Shown here: positions 1-8,983 of the stretch, piece by piece
How the letters are laid out: each line of letters opens with the position of its first letter
How positions within the stretch are numbered: position 1 is the stretch's first letter
From: a virus
DNA length: 39,031 nt
Virus genome (UHGV): UHGV-0112814
Reading direction: 5' to 3' (one strand)
Translations under genes and position numbers: made by a program
The notes under the pieces: model-generated
The model's input: the letters and a program-made list of their open reading frames with translations, nothing else
The model's database searches: none
Told to the model about the DNA's origin: nothing

Positions 1-40
1 CATGGTTCGCGTCAGATCGTTGACAGCCGCACTCCATGAC

Positions 41-85
41 GGGTAAAAAGTGGATAAAATAATTTTACCCACCGGATTTTTACCC
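41..85 (+). repeat. Cluster of GGGTAAAA-type motifs (two direct at 41..49 and 52..60, two inverted ttttaccc at 63..70 and 78..85) directly upstream of the int start codon
   Basis: Same motif family as at the other window end; typical of integrase arm-type binding sites. Confidence 0.5.
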
Positions 86-1467
86 ATGCTCACCGTTAAG
101 CAGATTGAAGCAGCAAAGCCGAAAGAAAAACCATACCGCCTTCTCGATGGTAATGGCCTGTACCTTTATGTCCCTGTATCAGGGAAAAAGGTATGGCAGC
201 TTCGCTACAAGATTGACGGTAAGGAGAAAATCCTGACCGTAGGAAAATATCCGCTAATGACTTTGCAGGAAGCAAGAGATAAAGCATGGACCGCGAGGAA
301 AGACATCTCGGTTGGCATCGATCCGGTAAAAGCGAAAAAGGCTTCGTCTAACAACAATTCCTTTAGTGCCATTTACAAGGAATGGTACGAGCACAAGAAG
401 CAAGTCTGGTCAGTAGGCTATGCAACTGAACTTGCCAAAATGTTTGATGACGACATTTTACCCATCATCGGCGGTCTTGAGATTCAGGATATTGAGCCGA
501 TGCAACTGCTGGAAGTAATCCGCAGATTTGAAGATCGCGGTGCAATGGAGCGAGCAAATAAAGCCCGCAGAAGATGCGGCGAGGTTTTCCGTTACGCTAT
601 TGTCACCGGCAGGGCTAAATATAACCCGGCACCTGACCTTGCAGACGCCATGAAAGGATACCGCAAGAAGAACTTCCCGTTTCTTCCTGCAGACCAGATC
701 CCGGCATTCAACAAAGCACTGGCAACATTTTCAGGAAGTATCGTATCGCTCATTGCGACCAAAGTTTTACGCTACACAGCCCTAAGAACGAAAGAGCTTC
801 GCTCCATGCAATGGAAGAACGTCGATTTTGAAAACAGGATTATCACCATCGACGCCAGTGTGATGAAGGGACGCAAAATTCATGTGGTTCCTATGTCAGA
901 CCGTTTCTTCCTGCAGACCAGATCCCGGCATTCAACAAAGCACTGGCAACATTTTCAGGAAGTATCGTATCGCTCATTGCGACCAAAGTTTTACGCTACA
1001 CAGCCCTAAGAACGAAAGAGCTTCGCTCCATGCAATGGAAGAACGTCGATTTTGAAAACAGGATTATCACCATCGACGCCAGTGTGATGAAGGGACGCAA
1101 AATTCATGTGGTTCCTATGTCAGACCAGGTGGTTGAACTTCTCACTACGCTAAGCTCAATCACCAAACCAGTATCAGAGTTTGTTTTTGCCGGGCGCAAC
1201 GATAAGAAGAAGCCAATCTGCGAGAACGCGGTACTGCTTGTGATCAAACAAATCGGCTATGAGGGTCTGGAAAGCGGTCACGGATTCAGGCATGAATTCA
1301 GCACGATTATGAACGAGCACGAATGGCCTGCTGATGCTATTGAAGTGCAACTGGCACATGCCAACGGCGGATCTGTGCGCGGGATTTACAACCATGCTCA
1401 GTATCTCGATAAGCGCAGAGAAATGATGCAGTGGTGGGCGGACTGGCTTGATGGGAAGGCGGGCTAA
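86..1467 (+). pseudogene. int: P4/IntS-type tyrosine integrase, reading frame broken by an internal 224-bp tandem duplication (N-terminal fragment ends at stop 1007-1009; C-terminal fragment resumes as ORF 1030..1467)
   Basis: ORF 50..1009 and ORF 1030..1467 share the peptide MQWKNVDFENRIITIDASVMKGRKIHVVPMSD; the second ORF continues into a tyrosine-recombinase C-terminus (HGFRHEF ... GIYNHAQY). ATG at 86 (MLTVKQIEAAKP) preferred over the track start at 50. 224 is not a multiple of 3, so the frame shifts. Confidence 0.85.
677..1124 (+). repeat. Perfect direct tandem duplication, 2 x 224 bp (copy 1 677..900, copy 2 901..1124), with 2-bp CC microhomology at the junction
   Basis: The string ccgtttcttcctgcagaccagatcccggc ... 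gttcctatgtcaga occurs twice back to back, identical by eye. Confidence 0.9.
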
Positions 1468-1754
1468 CCAACTTTGCTATATCGCGGACAGCACAACGCC
1501 TGGCAATCCAGTGTAAAGCTTTGTGCGTATGAGTTTTGTATCGTTACGATCCACACTCCCAGAGAACTATACCATATAGCCCACCTACATCGTATAGTTG
1601 CGTTTTAATGTTGCCAATACCTAACGTATTGTGAGATCTTAGTATTCTCTATAGATAAACAAGGTTTAATGATATCATAATTTCAAATTATTATAGTTGT
1701 TTAATTGTTTGATTTTTAAACTCATTATTAAAATACACTATCAAGGTGATTTAA

Positions 1755-2804
1755 TTGAAACTTAATGATATTTTAAAGAAAGAAAATAACAATATAGATA
1801 TATTCAGAGTCATAGCTGCATGTCTGGTTATATGGGGACACGCTTATGTAATATCACCTGAAGTTGGGAAAAGTGATTTTATCACTTACCTTTTACCTCA
1901 CGACACTAGCGGTTCTATTGCAGTTAAAATATTCTTTTTCTTAAGTGGCTTAGTTGTTACTAACTCGATATTAACAACAAATAGTCCAATAAAATTTATT
2001 GCATCGAGATTTTTCAGGATATGGCCTGCTTTATTTTTCACATGTATTATTTGTGCATATATCATAGGGCCAATCGTTTCGACTCTTCCTTTGAAAGAGT
2101 ATTTCAATCCTGAAAACAGGATTTACCTTTATGTGTTTAACAATATATCGATGATAACGCAATACAATCTCCCCGGAGTTTTCTTGGATAATCCACACCC
2201 CATAAGTGTAAACGGTTCTTTATGGACAATTCCTTACGAGGTATATGCATATATAATTCTTTTATGTCTGTTTTGTATTGGGATTTACAAAAAACCGCTG
2301 CTAGTAGCATTTTTGGCTGTGGCAATAACATTTGAGTCTGTTTCTAAAATAAAAATTGTTTTTTTTAGCACACCATCTAACCCAGAAGTGCCAATGCTTG
2401 CGGCATGTTTTGCGTTCGGCTCAGTATTGGCCGCATATAAAAATGTAATTTCAATAACGTTAAAAACCTTTATCTCCCTATGGATATTGTATATTCTCCT
2501 TATTGATAACCCATATTCAATGTATCTATCCTATGCGGCAATCTTTATTGCCATACTATACTTATCAAAAACAAACACACTATTAAAGATTAAGCCAAAA
2601 GCTGACATATCCTATGGTGTGTATCTTTGGGGCTTTCCTGTTCAGCAAATCATAGCAATGTATTTTCTTAATAAAGGGGTGCTTTTTAACCAAATCTTAT
2701 CGATTTTTATATGCATAGTTCTTGGTTGGGCGTCATGGCACTTGGTAGAGAAAAGATTTATAAATCTCGGAAAGTTGGTGGGGAACCGCTTATCAGGTAA
2801 ATAA
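1755..2804 (+). CDS. oac: Integral membrane acyltransferase (acyltransferase-3 family), O-antigen acetylase-like serotype-conversion moron; TTG start
   Basis: 349 aa, highly hydrophobic multi-pass protein with an N-terminal IDIFRVIAACLVIWGHAY-type motif typical of acyltransferase-3 enzymes; very AT-rich by eye; sits between int and tailspike as oac does in Sf6-type phages. RBS aggtga upstream of TTG. Confidence 0.7.
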   Translation: MKLNDILKKENNNIDIFRVIAACLVIWGHAYVISPEVGKSDFITYLLPHDTSGSIAVKIFFFLSGLVVTNSILTTNSPIKFIASRFFRIWPALFFTCIICAYIIGPIVSTLPLKEYFNPENRIYLYVFNNISMITQYNLPGVFLDNPHPISVNGSLWTIPYEVYAYIILLCLFCIGIYKKPLLVAFLAVAITFESVSKIKIVFFSTPSNPEVPMLAACFAFGSVLAAYKNVISITLKTFISLWILYILLIDNPYSMYLSYAAIFIAILYLSKTNTLLKIKPKADISYGVYLWGFPVQQIIAMYFLNKGVLFNQILSIFICIVLGWASWHLVEKRFINLGKLVGNRLSGK

Positions 2805-2855
2805 ATCTACCCCCCCCACACAATTCCTGTGAGAACGTGGTGGTGGGGGTAGGTA

Positions 2856-5126
2856 TTACAAGCAAGCAGTTAACGGGAATGCAGTGTCTCCAATGTTAAG
2901 GACGACAGCAGCGATATCAATAGCAAAAACAGTACCGACAGGAAGGTTAATATTGACAATAACCTTTTCTTGTGTATCTAGAGAAGCACCTGGCGACATT
3001 TGGGCCACCCTGAAGTGAATAAACCTTCTGTAAAAATTCCCATCGTTTGGTATTGATACTACATTGTCACCCGAGCTTGCAAACCCTCCATTAACAGAAA
3101 CTACTGTTCCAGTGATGCCGCCAACTCCGCCAGCAGTAAACGTTTTAGCATAAAAAGAAAGGCACACATTACACCCCTGAATTTTGGCAGGAGAGATATC
3201 TAATTCAAATTGTAGCTGAAGATATGTTTGATCTGTAGCAGGTGATGTGCATAGTAACTGGAATGCATTTCTTTGCATATCTAATCGGTTTCGCTCATAT
3301 CCTCCTGCTGCAGTATTATTAGTAGTCCTTTTAGTTAGAGTAAAGCTACCTCCGGTTCCATCTGAAACGGCAGTCAACCCGCTTATTCCGAAATTACTAT
3401 TTATAGGAGCAGCGCCAACATATCCATTAATAATATCTGATGCATCCGAAATCTTCACTAGATTTTTTACTCTGCTTTTATATGAAGGCTTGTAAACAGA
3501 TGCGTACTCAGGCTCAATAAGATATCCAATATTATTTAAATTACCATCGTATCTAATAGTGCCAATATCCCAGTTTTTGTGACCAATAATTTCAGGAGAT
3601 TCAATTAACGGGTAGTGATAATGCACAAATGTTGCTTTATCAATAGACAAATCCTCTAATGCTAAATTATTTCCAAATATGAAATATCTACTTACGTGTT
3701 CAGTATTACCCATATTTGCATAACTACCATTTACTGTTAATCTTTTTACAAATGTAGATGCACCATTATCAACCATTCCGGCACCGCCATCGGCCTTACT
3801 GCCTGTAAAATATGGGTCATCATCATATGATAGCTGGATGCATTTAATTACCTCCCCTTCCTCTGGGCCAAATGGTTTCTCTGAGTAGAAATTTAGAAGT
3901 GTTACATCTGCACAACCAGCTGAAATGATAACATCAGTAAGCATGCCATTGTTTGCTCCTCCTTCAATAACCGTGCGCCAACCGCTAATCCAGTAAGCTA
4001 TCCCGCCACGCGACCAGCCAACACCTTCCACCTTATTGTTTGTTGCCGTCAACAATGTACTCCAAAGATCAACAACTTTACCAAGAACATGATCTTCGTA
4101 GTAACCAGGGCAGCGCACAAAGTTTCGTGTATTCACCCTATCAGCTATGAAATCGGTATGGGCCTCGAACAAGCAATCCCTTACCGATACCCTCCAGTTG
4201 TTAAATTCGGCATTAACAGCCCAGGAGCCATCTCCGCCAAACGCACGGAATTCGCAATTAGATACATCGCAATAAGTTACCCAATGAGCAAAATTTATTG
4301 CATATCCTGATGTTGCCCCCCCCTTAAAAACAGCACCTTCAATACTGTAGTGCTTATTAAACGGGGTCTTACCAGTAGCTCCGTTGTAGTCTCCGCTTAG
4401 ATCATATGGGCCCATGTTAAAGGCGTTTCCTGAGCCTAAGTAATGGAATACAGTTCCTTCGCAGATAATTCTTACCGGTCTGGTGAAATGCATGTCTTTA
4501 GAATATGAGATTGTACCTGGTGGGAATAGCACTCCAACAGGAATTCCATCAGTATTAGGTATCGCGTTCACATACTCCACGAAAGCGTTGATCGCATCAG
4601 TAGAGTCAGTACCATCCATCTTTACACCAAAGTCCTGTGGTGTGATGAAATCCTGATTTTTATCGTGTTGCGTCCTGTGTATTGCACCAATCGCAGGGAG
4701 GTGAACACCAATCAGCGCATCACCCTTTGTATCGTCATCGATATAACTGCCATCTTGAGCAAGCTGGTCTTTGAAGTCAGGACCAAACTGATCAGGGTCA
4801 TACTTCAGCACGTTAGGGAAATAGAACTGCTGAGCACCGTACGCATCATAAACAGCCATAGAATGGCCTTGCACAGTTACGAACTTGGCAATCTGTCCGT
4901 TATATACGGGGTAACCAGCAGCGTTAATGATGATTGGTTGCGATACAGGAACGTGAGAGCCGTCTTCGTTCTCTACATAAACCTGAATCTGGTTTTCAGG
5001 ATTTACCGGGTCAGTGTCAATTTTACCGATATAAATTTTGCCATTGGCTACGGCTTTAAAAGAACGAGCCATAGTGAAGAGTTGCGAAGGCATGCTGACC
5101 ACAACATTTGCGGTGATATCTGACAT
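2856..5126 (-). CDS. Tailspike protein with P22-type N-terminal head-binding domain and a divergent receptor-binding body
   Basis: N-terminus [59 protein letters not shown] closely matches the P22 gp9 N-terminus. Start moved to ATG at 5126 (the track start at 5174 adds 16 aa). Confidence 0.9.
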
Positions 5127-5151
5127 TTCATTGCTCCAGACGAATGATATG

Positions 5152-5174
5152 ATGCAATCATGATGTGATTGCAT
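5152..5174. promoter_or_regulatory. Candidate operator: inverted repeat atgcaatca-tgatg-tgattgcat between the tailspike start and mnt
   Basis: Perfect 9-bp half-sites with a 5-bp spacer in the 120-bp divergent intergenic region. Confidence 0.4.
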
Positions 5175-5247
5175 ACCGAAATGGTACTATTGAGTATTTA
5201 TCCAGTAGGTTACGATGCCATTCCACCCAACTGGTGAGACATCAAGG

Positions 5248-5508
5248 ATGTACAGCAAATACGACGAGGCGCAGTTTCACTTGAGACTTCCGCATGAACT
5301 CCACGCGAAAATTAAGCAGCGTGCGAAGATGAATAACAGGTCGCTGAACTCAGAGATAATTGCAGCGATTGAAGAATCATTGGCTAAACAAAGCTCTGCA
5401 TCAGTTTACATTGACGATGCAGAGCGTATGGCAGAACAACAATCTGATATGGTTAAGAAAATTGTCTTTGATACGCTCAAGGAGCTATATAAAAAAGACA
5501 GCAACTAA
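5248..5508 (+). CDS. mnt: Mnt-like ribbon-helix-helix repressor
   Basis: FHLRLPHELHAKIKQRAKMNNRSLNSEII ... DDAERMAEQQSDMVKKIVFDTLKELYKK aligns with P22 Mnt; transcribed opposite to the late genes as in P22. Start ambiguous between 5215 and 5248. Confidence 0.8.
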   Translation: MYSKYDEAQFHLRLPHELHAKIKQRAKMNNRSLNSEIIAAIEESLAKQSSASVYIDDAERMAEQQSDMVKKIVFDTLKELYKKDSN

Positions 5509-5597
5509 CCATCCATTACGGAGGATTTATGCAAAGAGATATGATGAATATTGCATTCTACATATTTGGTTTTTGCACTTTCCTGGTGTTTGCAAAG

Positions 5598-7595
5598 CTA
5601 TTCTGACAACGCATCAGACTTAGCCCCCTGAGTCAGAGCGTTAATGGCCTTTTGTGCCTGCTGCATGGCTTTCTCGAACACTGTTGATCCGCGTGGGGTG
5701 TTTGCCATTCGGAGCATTGCATTTCTGAATGGCTCGCTCTCATAGGCGCGAGTAAGAAGTCCGTAGCTTACTGCTGCGCCAGTTGTTGCAGGGTTCATTG
5801 CCGTCCCATACCCAATAATGAACGGGATGGTTTGCTGCCCTGTTGGTGTTGTTACTGCCGCTTTTGCAGCCTGCTGCGTGGATTGAAGGTAGTTTTTCAA
5901 TCCTTTCAGATAAGCGGCTTCCTGACCTTTAAATGTGATGCCAGTCTGGTTTTGCAGGATGTTAAGCTGTCGAAGGAACTGGTCAGGGGAACCACCTGAT
6001 TTCTCCATCGCCTTTCCAATGATGCCATTGCGCATTTGCGCCCTGCCAACACGACCAACTGAGTTATACAGCGTCTTAATTTCCGATTTGTTCTTGCTGA
6101 ATAGCATGTTGTTGACAACTTCCGGCGTCAGGTCGCCTTTCATGAGAACATTCTTCAGCCTTGTATTCTTTAATTTCGCCGCTTCGTCAGCGTAGACGGC
6201 ATTGGCCTGCTGATATTTACGGAGAGTATCGTTGCCAAGATTCTGACCAATGGCACCATTGATATCGTCTGTCATCGCCTTGTAAACGCGCTGAATGGCA
6301 GCATCGGAACGGTTTGGTAACACTGGTCGTTCCCCCTTCACGTCCATTCTGAACTGGCTGCGCAGATCGCTTAATTGCTTCAAGTCCAGATTTACCGGAC
6401 CATCAGGACCAGCATTGCGAATAAGCTCATCACGATAGGATTGAAGTTTTGAAATCGTCTCGTTATCAGCGACCTTACCAAGCTTCTGCAGGTTAGATAT
6501 TTCTGTATCAATCTGCTGAATTGCTCGAGCAGGCTGGATATTGACTCCCGCCATTGCATTCTGAACCTGCTCAAGACGGTTCCCTGCAGCACGACGAATT
6601 CCTGATGTTTTCGCTTTAAGGCTGTCAATAACAACAGCTGGATCATACTCACAGAATTTATCAGCAAATCTCTGCACCAACTGGCTTCTCGCTTCCTGTT
6701 GCGTTGCTCTCATTCCGCTTGTGCCAGCCAGGGGGATATTTTCCGCTGTCGTCTGCGCCATTTTCCCGACGCGGGAAGTTGGTTGTAACAGGTCTGTGGT
6801 GTGCAGAGGGACTCCTTCACGCTCTGCAAATCTGATAGCCTGCTGCGCTTCTGGCGCAATAGCACCGCGAACGCCACGATAAGCAGCACCTAATCCACGT
6901 CCAGCAGCGTTAATAGCGCCGCCTGCCAGAACTCCAACACCTAAATCGGTAGCGAGTGCTTCCGCATCATCTTTCGCACTATTTACAGCAAGTGATCCAA
7001 CTGCGTTTTCTGCTAGAAGGCGAGTTGCCCCATGAGCAATTCGACCAGCAAGTGTTGGTGCCTGTACCGACGCTCTCTCAACGCCAGCAGGAGTGAGGTA
7101 AGGCAATGCTTCAGCAAATACCCTTCCCTCTGTCGTTTGTGGAGTCAGCGCACCTTGCTGAAGGCCAAAGTCCTGCTCTAATCCCTGCGTTGTTACTCGT
7201 GGTGCTGGTTGATATGTACCATCGCCAATGCCGAGTTTACCGCCAGCCCAAGCCGCCGCGCTTGTTACAGCATCGGCAACTGATGCAGGTATGTTTGCCA
7301 CGTTCACGCCAGCCTGCACCAGTCCACGACCAGTCTCTTTTACTGCTTCACCAAGATCAGGCATAAATCCATTTTGCTGTGGTTGTTGCTGTGCTACTGG
7401 TTGTTGTGTCTCCACTGGCTGCACAGATGGCAATGGATAGGCAGCATAGAAAGCTTGCTTAGCCTGCTCTGCATTTTCTCCGGCTTGCGGGGCCACGACT
7501 TCATTGAAGTATTGCTCCTGAGCCTGCGCTTTTTGTTCTGGTGCTAACGCCTGATACTGTGGAGAGGCGATAACATCTTTCCATGCTTTAGCCAT
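5598..7595 (-). CDS. DNA ejection/internal virion protein (P22 gp16-like)
   Basis: 665 aa; position and order (gp7-gp20-gp16 upstream of the tailspike) as in P22; Ala/Gln-rich. Confidence 0.7.
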   Translation of the reverse strand: MAKAWKDVIASPQYQALAPEQKAQAQEQYFNEVVAPQAGENAEQAKQAFYAAYPLPSVQPVETQQPVAQQQPQQNGFMPDLGEAVKETGRGLVQAGVNVANIPASVADAVTSAAAWAGGKLGIGDGTYQPAPRVTTQGLEQDFGLQQGALTPQTTEGRVFAEALPYLTPAGVERASVQAPTLAGRIAHGATRLLAENAVGSLAVNSAKDDAEALATDLGVGVLAGGAINAAGRGLGAAYRGVRGAIAPEAQQAIRFAEREGVPLHTTDLLQPTSRVGKMAQTTAENIPLAGTSGMRATQQEARSQLVQRFADKFCEYDPAVVIDSLKAKTSGIRRAAGNRLEQVQNAMAGVNIQPARAIQQIDTEISNLQKLGKVADNETISKLQSYRDELIRNAGPDGPVNLDLKQLSDLRSQFRMDVKGERPVLPNRSDAAIQRVYKAMTDDINGAIGQNLGNDTLRKYQQANAVYADEAAKLKNTRLKNVLMKGDLTPEVVNNMLFSKNKSEIKTLYNSVGRVGRAQMRNGIIGKAMEKSGGSPDQFLRQLNILQNQTGITFKGQEAAYLKGLKNYLQSTQQAAKAAVTTPTGQQTIPFIIGYGTAMNPATTGAAVSYGLLTRAYESEPFRNAMLRMANTPRGSTVFEKAMQQAQKAINALTQGAKSDALSE

Positions 7596-8983
7596 TAATC
7601 ACCCCATAGTGAAGAAAAGTTACTGCTGGCTGCTGGCTGTGATACCTGTGCAGGTTGAGATTGCTTCCGCTGAGATTTACCAACATTAACGTTATATTGT
7701 TGGTTGTAATTGTTGGTGTATTCCTGAATTTCACGAATCGACTGCTGCATAGCCTCCGGGCTTGAATAGTCAACCTGCGGCATCCCCTGAAAATACATCT
7801 TCGCTTCTGCAACGGTGTTAATACCACTGGCACCCATGTCCCTTGCTGCCGCCACACCCTGATTCTGCATTCTGCCCTGAATACGTTGTGCTGAGTTATA
7901 TAACTGGCGCTGCTCTTTTCCCGTTAATCGGCTGCGAACATCAGCACCAATTGCTGGATTACCTGCACCGCCTGTCATTCCTGTCATGAAATCGAGAGCA
8001 GAAGCGTCTGCATTTGCGATCGCGTCGATATCCTTCTTCATGGCATAGTTTTGTGCTGATGCAGACGATGTTGCAGGCGCAGCGATTGAACTGGCAGGGA
8101 CGCGAACCATATTCCCCTCGTTGTCGATGCCTTCGTAGAACGCATTAGCCCCAGCGCCATGAAGCTTCCCGCCTACCGTTACAGTTCTGCCATCTGATAA
8201 CTGAACTGTACGCTCATCATTCCCAGCGATTCCTCTTGTTGACGCTCGCTGCATTGCCAAATCCTGACCTCGTCGCGCAGTAGAAGCAGATAAGTCCTGA
8301 CCGCGCATCGTGATGTTCTGGCCTCGTGCTGTTAGCGCCTCGCCAGCCTGATTTCTGCGGATTGTCTCTGCAAGTTTCCCGCGATCAATCTCACGACCAG
8401 CCATCTTGTCCTGAACATTGAAGTAATCAATTGGACCAAGAGCAGCCATTCCAAGGTGATCAACAAACTCACCAAATCCTGAAGGGTTCTGCTGATACAT
8501 CTGAGCAACGCTGTTAGGGTCAACACCTACGCGAGTCAGTTCCTTGGCGTTGTTTTGCAGCCATGATTGCATCGCTTCTGGAGACGATGCCGCAAGGCGA
8601 GCGCCAGCCGCTAAGGTACCGATGGAATTGCGCTGGTCTTCATCAATGAATCCCATGCCTTTACGAACGGATTCAATCTGGTCTGGATATTCAGTAGCTA
8701 ACTGACGCAAAGCACCGCGATCACCAGACGCATAAGCATTAGCGTATGCCTGCTGAAATTCTTTCTGCCGATGAGCCTGCTTTTCCTGCTGAAACACCCC
8801 CGCAATACCTGAAAGGCCTTGCAAAGCAGTCAGCCCAACATTGTTAGCGCCTGAACGCTCAATATCATTGTTCTGCCTGATAAGCTGAAGCGTATTGCCG
8901 ATGTCATTTACGTTCGGAGCGTTTGAGTTGACACCACCGATACCAGCCAACAATCCGCCATTTGTTCCTTGCCAAGTAGCCAT
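7595..8983 (-). CDS. DNA ejection protein (P22 gp20-like)
   Basis: 462 aa, Gly/Ala/Gln-rich, synteny with P22 gene 20 (471 aa). Confidence 0.7.

Follow-up and report, generated by a model that had tools for sequence, protein, structure and literature searches.

The virus genome UHGV-0112814, a DNA stretch of 39,031 nucleotides (nt) that was analyzed as a whole and is referred to below as the window, comprises the complete genome of a P22-like (Lederbergvirus-type) prophage, with an IntS-type integrase gene (int) at one end and an excisionase-like gene at the other. Next to int, it carries a gene for a 349-residue protein of the acyltransferase 3 (AT3) family, followed by a hairpin and a convergently transcribed tailspike gene. 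Judging from its sequence and genomic associations, this AT3 gene probably (with a probability of roughly 0.7) serves to modify the O-antigen, as the lysogenic-conversion cassette of an argW-integrating P22-like prophage. Its place between int and the tailspike gene is an ordinary serotype-conversion arrangement; the gene itself is new and uncharacterized. A more specific and only tentative proposal is that it makes the O-acetyl group that has been described on the galactose of the Escherichia coli O71 antigen.

The AT3 gene and its predicted product

The initial annotation of this region, made by eye from the sequence, described the gene as a multi-pass acyltransferase of the AT3 family, and the database searches and structure prediction agree. 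Residues 11 to 323 match positions 1 to 316 of the 326-position Pfam profile Acyl_transf_3 (PF01757) with an E value of 2.3e-23 and a score of 83.2 bits (cut-off, 31), and the protein also matches PHROG 3333, "O-acetyltransferase" (E value of 1e-35). NCBIfam contains no family or equivalog matching this protein, nor any matching the tailspike. The open reading frame (ORF) of 1,050 nt ends with a stop codon right after the AT3 domain, at residue 349, and PF01757 is the only domain found by Pfam, so the protein is of the AT3-only type. The Pfam results and the end of the ORF both indicate that a C-terminal periplasmic SGNH domain following an 11th helix is not present.

Conservation of the family motifs was read from alignments of 10 and 66 homologs. 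The R-X10-H motif in the first membrane helix, which is absolutely conserved and essential in the AT3 family (PMC9833829), is represented by R18 and H29, with 10 residues between them; among the 66 homologs, H29 is invariant and R18 is conserved in at least 90%. [quoted passage not shown] The motifs S64-G65, G154-S-L-W-T158, S286-Y-G288, and F294-P-V296 and the residue E332 are also retained.

The AlphaFold2 model of the protein (predicted local distance difference test score, 94.3; predicted template modeling score, 0.91) has ∼10 membrane helices, in agreement with the hydropathy peaks. Its long helices comprise residues 14 to 33, 52 to 75, 78 to 108, 154 to 175, 181 to 196, 212 to 227, 236 to 248, 255 to 271, and 286 to 348, the last of these accounting for two membrane spans. 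No solved AT3 structure for comparison was found in the PDB by sequence search, and Foldseek gave no significant match there, the only suggestive one being HGSNAT (PDB entry 8vli; probability, 0.69). A search of BFVD returned one unnamed protein of AT3-SGNH size, which adds nothing to the Pfam assignment.

Comparison with a diverged allele (locus L025; 83% DNA identity) gives a ratio of nonsynonymous to synonymous substitutions (dN/dS) of 0.079 at a dS of 0.77, so the protein is under long-term purifying selection. By all these sequence-based criteria, the gene is a real and intact AT3-only acyltransferase gene. Its TTG start, which had been considered uncertain, is now well supported. No other canonical start precedes the codons for the essential R18 and H29 in this frame. 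The TTG is itself preceded at a distance of 6 nt by the Shine-Dalgarno sequence AAGGTG and is used in the annotation of E. coli strain TB06053 by the Prokaryotic Genome Annotation Pipeline (PGAP). Both TTG and AAGGTG are kept in the L025 allele, and the N termini of the homologs align at the same residue, with the Aeromonas homologs using ATG at this position.

The impression that the gene has a markedly lower G+C content than the phage backbone was borne out by a windowed calculation. The G+C content is 0.339 in the AT3 gene (0.320 at third codon positions [GC3]), compared to 0.474 in the whole window and 0.479 in int, and the ten lowest-GC segments of 1,050 nt in the entire 39 kb all lie at positions 1401 to 1851 (minimum of 0.318 versus a mean of 0.475 and a standard deviation [SD] of 0.041, or about −3.3 to −3.8 SD). 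As proof of recent import, however, the low G+C content is weakened by the fact that homologs of this gene are equally AT-rich in all hosts and phages examined (Aeromonas genomes and IMG/VR viral contigs), with values of 0.31 to 0.42 in loci of 0.45 to 0.61. It may therefore characterize the gene family as such instead of marking a recent import.

Linkage to one tailspike type and to serogroup O71

The DNA of the AT3 gene has no match among 50,697 phage records. Among 5,426 complete E. coli genomes, it is intact in a single one, that of strain TB06053 from Galapagos fresh water (99.8% identity), in which the genes are contiguous in a prophage integrated at argW, in the order tRNA-Arg gene (argW), intS, AT3 gene, and tailspike gene. 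A protein identical to the AT3 protein or differing from it by one residue is encoded on at least 10 draft contigs; in those listed, argW-side genes or a break within int are followed by the AT3 gene and then by the gene for a 756-residue tailspike, with a variable backbone downstream. Similarly, in all eight other loci where the AT3 gene or a remnant of it is present, the tailspike is the same (97.6 to 99.6% amino acid identity), even though their downstream backbones differ, and the tailspike on an IMG/VR contig with the AT3 gene (L026) is 98.3% identical at the amino acid level. In the diverged L025 allele, the AT3 gene is followed by a hairpin and the 3′ end of the tailspike gene. Another IntS prophage (L040) combines int with an AT3 gene whose product is 38% identical and a tailspike with a head-binding domain. 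Finally, E. coli MB46 has the same prophage end, from which ∼850 bp of the cassette (corresponding to window positions ∼1656 to 2502) have been lost, leaving the last 99 codons of the AT3 gene.

The MB46 deletion is bridged (L002, positions 8257 to 8296) by a perfect 40-nt palindrome, TTGACATCCTCCCCGCCCTAAAGGGCGGGGAGGATGTCAA, a single copy of which is found in each of 14 further complete genomes of E. coli, 11 times on plasmids. On one plasmid, a tnpB/insQ gene has 31 nt of the palindrome at its 3′ edge, suggesting a small mobile element of palindromic structure, or a footprint, with a relationship to IS200/IS605. On the IMG/VR contig mentioned above (IMGVR_UViG_3300045988_053274, positions 25 to 1052), the AT3 protein aligns as two overlapping pieces, residues 3 to 205 and 200 to 349, a pattern that suggests either a sequencing error or a frameshifted gene around codon 200. 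An apparently truncated E. coli copy of 206 residues (P0011) is cut by the end of its contig and was rejected as a biological truncation.

The tailspike ties this cassette to a particular host serogroup. DNA coding for its receptor-binding part is found in exactly two of the complete E. coli genomes, TB06053 and MB46, and a third, MSB1_9I, encodes a tailspike that is 65% identical over its full length. All three strains belong to serogroup O71, the wzy gene of which is present in just 11 complete genomes. The hypergeometric probability of this association is ∼6e-9, or ∼4e-6 if TB06053 and MB46, which have a common insertion site and many identical proteins, are counted as one event. In the O71 strain MSB1_9I, the tailspike belongs to a different P22-like prophage adjoining bioA-ybhB (L021, positions 2202 to 6933). 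The slot next to this tailspike gene contains, in place of the AT3 gene, genes for GtrA, a GtrB-like glycosyltransferase of the GT2 family, and a GtrC-like hypothetical protein of 385 residues. Thus, two unrelated cassettes of O-antigen-modifying types, AT3 and gtr-like, share one slot next to related tailspikes in one host serogroup. The linkage to a single O71-confined tailspike and the gtr cassette in the sister slot, along with the occurrence of oac in the same slot of phage Sf6, strengthen the earlier view of this layout as one that serves lysogenic serotype conversion.

The tailspike combines an N-terminal P22-type head-binding domain with a receptor-binding part whose best phage match, in the Aeromonas salmonicida phage TSW001, shows 38% amino acid identity over 91% of the query. 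GC3 is 0.33 in the receptor-binding part and 0.45 in the head-binding part, and a second low-GC patch of the window (0.30 to 0.39 G+C) lies inside this gene, at positions ∼3300 to 3900. The receptor-binding module looks as foreign as the AT3 gene.

Candidate glycan, proposed mechanism, and alternatives

According to PMC3967211, which cites MacLean 2010 and Hu 2010, the O71 antigen has the repeat unit →4)-α-D-Quip3NAc-(1→3)-α-L-Rhap-(1→4)-β-D-Galp-(1→3)-α-D-GalpNAc-(1→, with nonstoichiometric O-acetylation of β-D-Gal. In that paper, the O71 backbone is also assigned to Aeromonas veronii O16 and Salmonella O28 Dakar, the latter with an additional Glc branch; the gtr cassette of MSB1_9I might add such a Glc side branch, as in Salmonella O28. 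(One literature match for "O71" concerned Proteus O71 and is irrelevant here.) The O71 O-antigen cluster comprises rmlBDAC, wzx, and wzy, as well as genes for an FdtA-like isomerase, a DegT aminotransferase, a hexapeptide acyltransferase, two GT2 glycosyltransferases, and a 472-residue protein without a Pfam match. It contains no AT3 gene, and its sole acyltransferase, the hexapeptide-type one, is needed for N-acetylating Qui3N to make Qui3NAc. Given that the cluster has no AT3 gene and yet an O-acetyl group has been reported, the prophage AT3 gene is a good candidate for making this group.

By analogy with characterized members of the family (PMC9833829 and PMC9558356), cytoplasmic acetyl-CoA would enter a transmembrane pore lined by the residues of the R-X10-H and RXXR motifs, and the acetyl group would be transferred to the O-antigen on the periplasmic side. 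The acceptor would most likely be the E. coli O71 repeat unit, in which we also see the most likely receptor for the neighboring tailspike, and the best candidate product would be the partially O-acetylated O71 galactose described in PMC3967211. Such acetylation can be expected to alter the surface antigen of the lysogen so that tailspikes of the same type bind or cleave it less, resulting in superinfection exclusion and in fewer progeny particles lost on lysogen debris. What we infer in this scheme is that the gene is expressed in the lysogen, that its product acts on the O-antigen and there on galactose, and that the modification is protective.

A number of observations weigh against this assignment. 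TB06053 and MB46 may be a single clone, which would leave the O71 association with two independent events. The intact AT3 gene is present in only 1 of the 11 complete O71 genomes, and MB46 lacks ∼850 bp of the cassette; should O71 strains be O-acetylated in general, there must be another enzyme that does this. The closest characterized enzyme, Sf6 Oac, is only 33% identical (E value of 3e-33), and its residues R75 (F87 here), F78 (W90 here), RK110-111, GR269-270, and D333 are not conserved. AT3 proteins act on diverse substrates (PMC9558356), and homologs in Raoultella (at most 54% identity) are lone chromosomal genes amid unrelated metabolic genes. In phage Kapi1, an acyltransferase-like gene occupies the same slot, and its overexpression caused no visible change in lipopolysaccharide (LPS) gels. 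As for expression, the initial annotation credited the gene with its own likely promoter, and two candidate σ70 promoters (1652 to 1681 and 1669 to 1697) can indeed be drawn in the leader. However, a consensus scan found 10 σ70-like sites versus 6.5 ± 2.8 expected, so these sites are not enriched above chance and the promoter has no statistical support. The combination of a TTG start with very AT-rich DNA could also mean weak expression or silencing by H-NS.

Alternatively, the AT3 gene could be AT-rich baggage, acquired by horizontal transfer, that is unexpressed or in decay and contributes nothing to its present hosts. The deletion remnant in MB46, the split alignment of the IMG/VR copy, the TTG start, the AT-rich leader typical of H-NS targets, and the chance-level promoter sites would all fit such a fate. 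It is nonetheless very improbable for a gene whose ORF is intact, whose product is identical or one residue off on 10 or more contigs whose backbones differ, whose catalytic motifs are all kept, whose dN/dS is as low as 0.079 over a dS of 0.77, and whose Shine-Dalgarno sequence and TTG start are conserved in a diverged allele. If the enzyme is active, it might acylate a different glycan, such as the enterobacterial common antigen (like WecH), capsule, colanic acid, or periplasmic glucans (like MdoC/OpgC), with the adjacency to the tailspike gene reflecting nothing but the usual site for cargo. The diversity of AT3 substrates (PMC9558356) would allow this, as would the lack of a characterized homolog above 33% identity or an NCBIfam equivalog match and the non-LPS, nonphage chromosomal settings of distant homologs (50 to 54% identity). 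We consider such a function unlikely, because the AT3 gene is always inherited together with a single tailspike type confined to O71 hosts, the same slot of a sister prophage holds a gtr cassette, the layout has a precedent in Sf6 oac, and the O71 cluster lacks an O-acetyltransferase in spite of the O-acetyl group that has been reported. The result that, according to the initial annotation, would have spoken against its interpretation, namely, non-LPS acyltransferases as the best homologs, did not arise from the homology search: the best homologs are uncharacterized and prophage-borne, and the closest characterized one is Sf6 Oac.

Within O-antigen modification, the enzyme could acetylate O71 at a position other than the reported one on Gal, thereby creating a new O71 subfactor, whereas the Gal acetyl group would come from a separate host enzyme. 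The intact gene is found in only 1 of the 11 complete O71 genomes, yet the chemically studied O71 strains were reported to be O-acetylated; moreover, several Oac-type enzymes of Shigella acetylate different positions of one backbone (PMC9558356). The O71 cluster, on the other hand, offers no other candidate O-acetyltransferase, and a mobile, easily lost gene would produce nonstoichiometric acetylation that varies among strains. This alternative is therefore less probable than the tentative assignment to the galactose, but it deserves more credit than acylation of an unrelated glycan.

The proposed role in O-antigen modification can be extended further, albeit at the price of becoming doubtful. 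The AT3 protein, as the missing enzyme of O71 Gal O-acetylation, may belong to a receptor-matched module of a tailspike and a modifying enzyme that is exchanged between Aeromonas and Escherichia phages, whose hosts share one O-antigen backbone (E. coli O71, A. veronii O16, and Salmonella O28). The closest relatives of the AT3 gene in Aeromonas prophages (62 to 66% identity), the TSW001 match of the tailspike, and the common O71/O16 backbone provide circumstantial evidence that suggests cross-genus movement of receptor-specific modules. The gtr cassette in the sister O71 prophage of MSB1_9I, as a possible source of the Glc branch of Salmonella O28, fits this reading as well.

If the assignment to O71 is true, a gene would be found for a known but genetically unexplained modification, and the partial, strain-variable occurrence of the latter would be explained. 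Serogroup O71 includes Shiga-toxin-producing strains. TB06053 (intact gene), MB46 (deleted gene), and MSB1_9I (gtr cassette) constitute a natural set of variants, and one AT-rich acetyltransferase lineage is represented on unrelated phage types in different genera. These findings bear on serotyping from sequence data, in which the O-antigen cluster alone is considered and prophage-encoded modifications are overlooked, as well as on the prediction of phage host range.

Flanking features and comparison with known systems

The features at the int end of the window are listed in Table 1. The spacer between the int stop (at position 1467) and the AT3 start (at position 1755) is exactly 287 bp long, as initially annotated, but it is not uniformly AT-rich. 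Its first segment belongs to the backbone: ∼1,900 E. coli records, as well as other phages, have it 3′ of intS, with megablast matches stopping at query positions 140 to 143. The rest is specific to the cassette. Phase variation of the kind known for Salmonella gtr and oafB, which is recognized by paired GATC sites in OxyR half-sites (Dam/OxyR signature), was considered and rejected, as no such signature is found upstream of the AT3 gene. The only two GATC sites there, at positions 1548 and 1635, are 87 nt apart, and matches to OxyR half-sites occur at the chance level (13 versus 13.8 ± 3.6 expected), with a single spacer match that lacks GATC.

Table 1. Features of the int-proximal part of UHGV-0112814 (positions refer to the 39,031-nt window)
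Feature	Positions	Strand	Evidence and details
IntS-type integrase gene (int)	86-1467	+	Pfam Arm-DNA-bind_3, Phage_int_M, and Phage_integrase; match split across two ORFs
Backbone segment 3′ of int, outside the cassette	1468-1542	+	G+C content of 0.467; megablast matches end near position ∼1542
Cassette-specific leader	1543-1754	+	G+C content of 0.229 over 1611-1754; candidate promoters; Shine-Dalgarno sequence at 1743-1748
Predicted AT3-only membrane O-acyltransferase gene, 349 residues, TTG start	1755-2804	+	PF01757, motifs, AlphaFold model, dN/dS
GC-rich hairpin, 50 nt	2805-2854		Folding energy; separates the AT3 stop (2802-2804) from the tailspike stop (2856-2858, minus strand)
Tailspike gene, 756 residues	2856-5126	−	Head-binding part at ∼4740-5126; receptor-binding part at 2856-4739; Pfam Head_binding, E value of 3e-67

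The GC-rich hairpin between the convergent AT3 and tailspike genes is another feature of the initial annotation that was confirmed. Its folding energy is −26.1 kcal/mol on the plus strand and −27.2 kcal/mol on the minus strand, with z scores of −2.4 and −2.6, respectively, against shuffled sequences. In the diverged L025 allele, a hairpin of a different sequence is found at the same place with equal or greater stability (−27.2 and −30.8 kcal/mol; z scores of −2.9 and −3.9), an indication that this structure has a function. Only on the tailspike strand does the hairpin have a U-rich tail, AUUUAUUUA; the tail on the AT3 strand is GGUAUUACAAG, without a T-run, and a consensus scan for canonical terminators found none. 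The hairpin is thus better described as a likely terminator of late transcription through the tailspike gene, which at the same time closes the AT3 transcript, acting on the latter as a barrier or stabilizer. In its left arm, the C-run (positions 2810 to 2817) is 8 nt long in the window and 10 nt long in TB06053 and MB46, a difference due either to a sequencing error or to a variable homopolymer length in this stem.

Inside int, a perfect tandem duplication of 224 nt (positions 677 to 900 are 100% identical to 901 to 1124) shifts the frame and splits the gene into ORFs 50 to 1009 and 1030 to 1467. In TB06053, MB46, and the draft contigs L004 to L006, intS is intact and encodes 385 residues. 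The duplication is either a very recent event that makes the prophage incapable of excision or an assembly artifact. The tailspike ORF, when delimited mechanically, covers positions 2856 to 5174 and starts at an upstream ATG (772 residues); its homologs and the PGAP annotation start at position 5126, which gives 756 residues. An Rfam scan of positions 1 to 6000 yielded nothing relevant, its sole match being isrK within int with an E value of 0.34, below the gathering score. The window could not be identified with a known phage, as the best phage genome matches just 71% of its central 25 kb. Phage Kapi1, in particular, which also integrates at argW, is distinct from the window, carries another gene in this position, and was rejected as its identity.

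The closest precedent for the cassette is the oac gene of phage Sf6. The annotated Sf6 order is an excisionase-like gene, the attP core, int, oac with a putative promoter, a terminator, and the convergent tailspike gene, so that the arrangement of int, acyltransferase gene, hairpin or terminator, and convergent tailspike gene is the same as in the window. Because attP is upstream of int, such a cassette stays beside int and the tailspike gene in the integrated prophage. Sf6 Oac (OacA) is likewise a standalone AT3 protein of similar size (333 residues versus 349 here). Its residues found by mutagenesis to be critical for function (PMC3467182) that are kept here include SG52-53, R73, R76, P79, GS138-139, WT141-142, SYG274-276, and FPV282-284. 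The differences include the G+C content (0.34 here versus 0.42 in oac), the TTG start, the O71 O-antigen of the host, and the tailspike. Since the two proteins are only 33% identical, the AT3 gene is a different gene in the oac slot and not an allele of oac.

The nearest relatives of the AT3 gene outside E. coli, with 60 to 66% protein identity over the full length, are found in P2-like prophages of Aeromonas dhakensis and A. salmonicida (P0003 to P0010). Aeromonas genomes with homologs at 62 to 66% identity include GCA_046078895.1, GCA_049169595.1, and GCA_048259925.1. The genes of these prophages are also cargo adjoining int, share the same N terminus, and are AT-rich (0.35 to 0.36 G+C in loci of 0.54 to 0.61). 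They differ in the type of phage (P2-like, with Phage_GPA and Ogr), in their slot, which is between the CI repressor gene and int with no adjacent tailspike gene, and in the ATG start. In the Aeromonas loci L003 and L008 to L014, the 3′ end of the AT3 gene overlaps the start of int by ∼14 to 20 nt in the same orientation, which suggests co-transcription with the lysogeny genes.

The gtrABC cassettes of P22-like and KplE1-type prophages occupy the same slot by the tailspike gene and probably serve the same purpose of O-antigen modification; they consist of three genes instead of one and add a glucosyl rather than an acyl group. The Salmonella enzymes OafA and OafB resemble the protein described here in their AT3 domain, including its R-X10-H and RXXR motifs, but also have an 11th helix and a periplasmic SGNH domain. 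OafB, encoded by prophage BTP1, confers protection from the tailspike of that very phage (PMC9558356). Altogether, the general understanding of such systems remains unchanged by this analysis. What the AT3 gene of UHGV-0112814 adds to them is a specific and testable candidate assignment, namely, to the O71 antigen, with O-acetylation of galactose as the favored candidate reaction.

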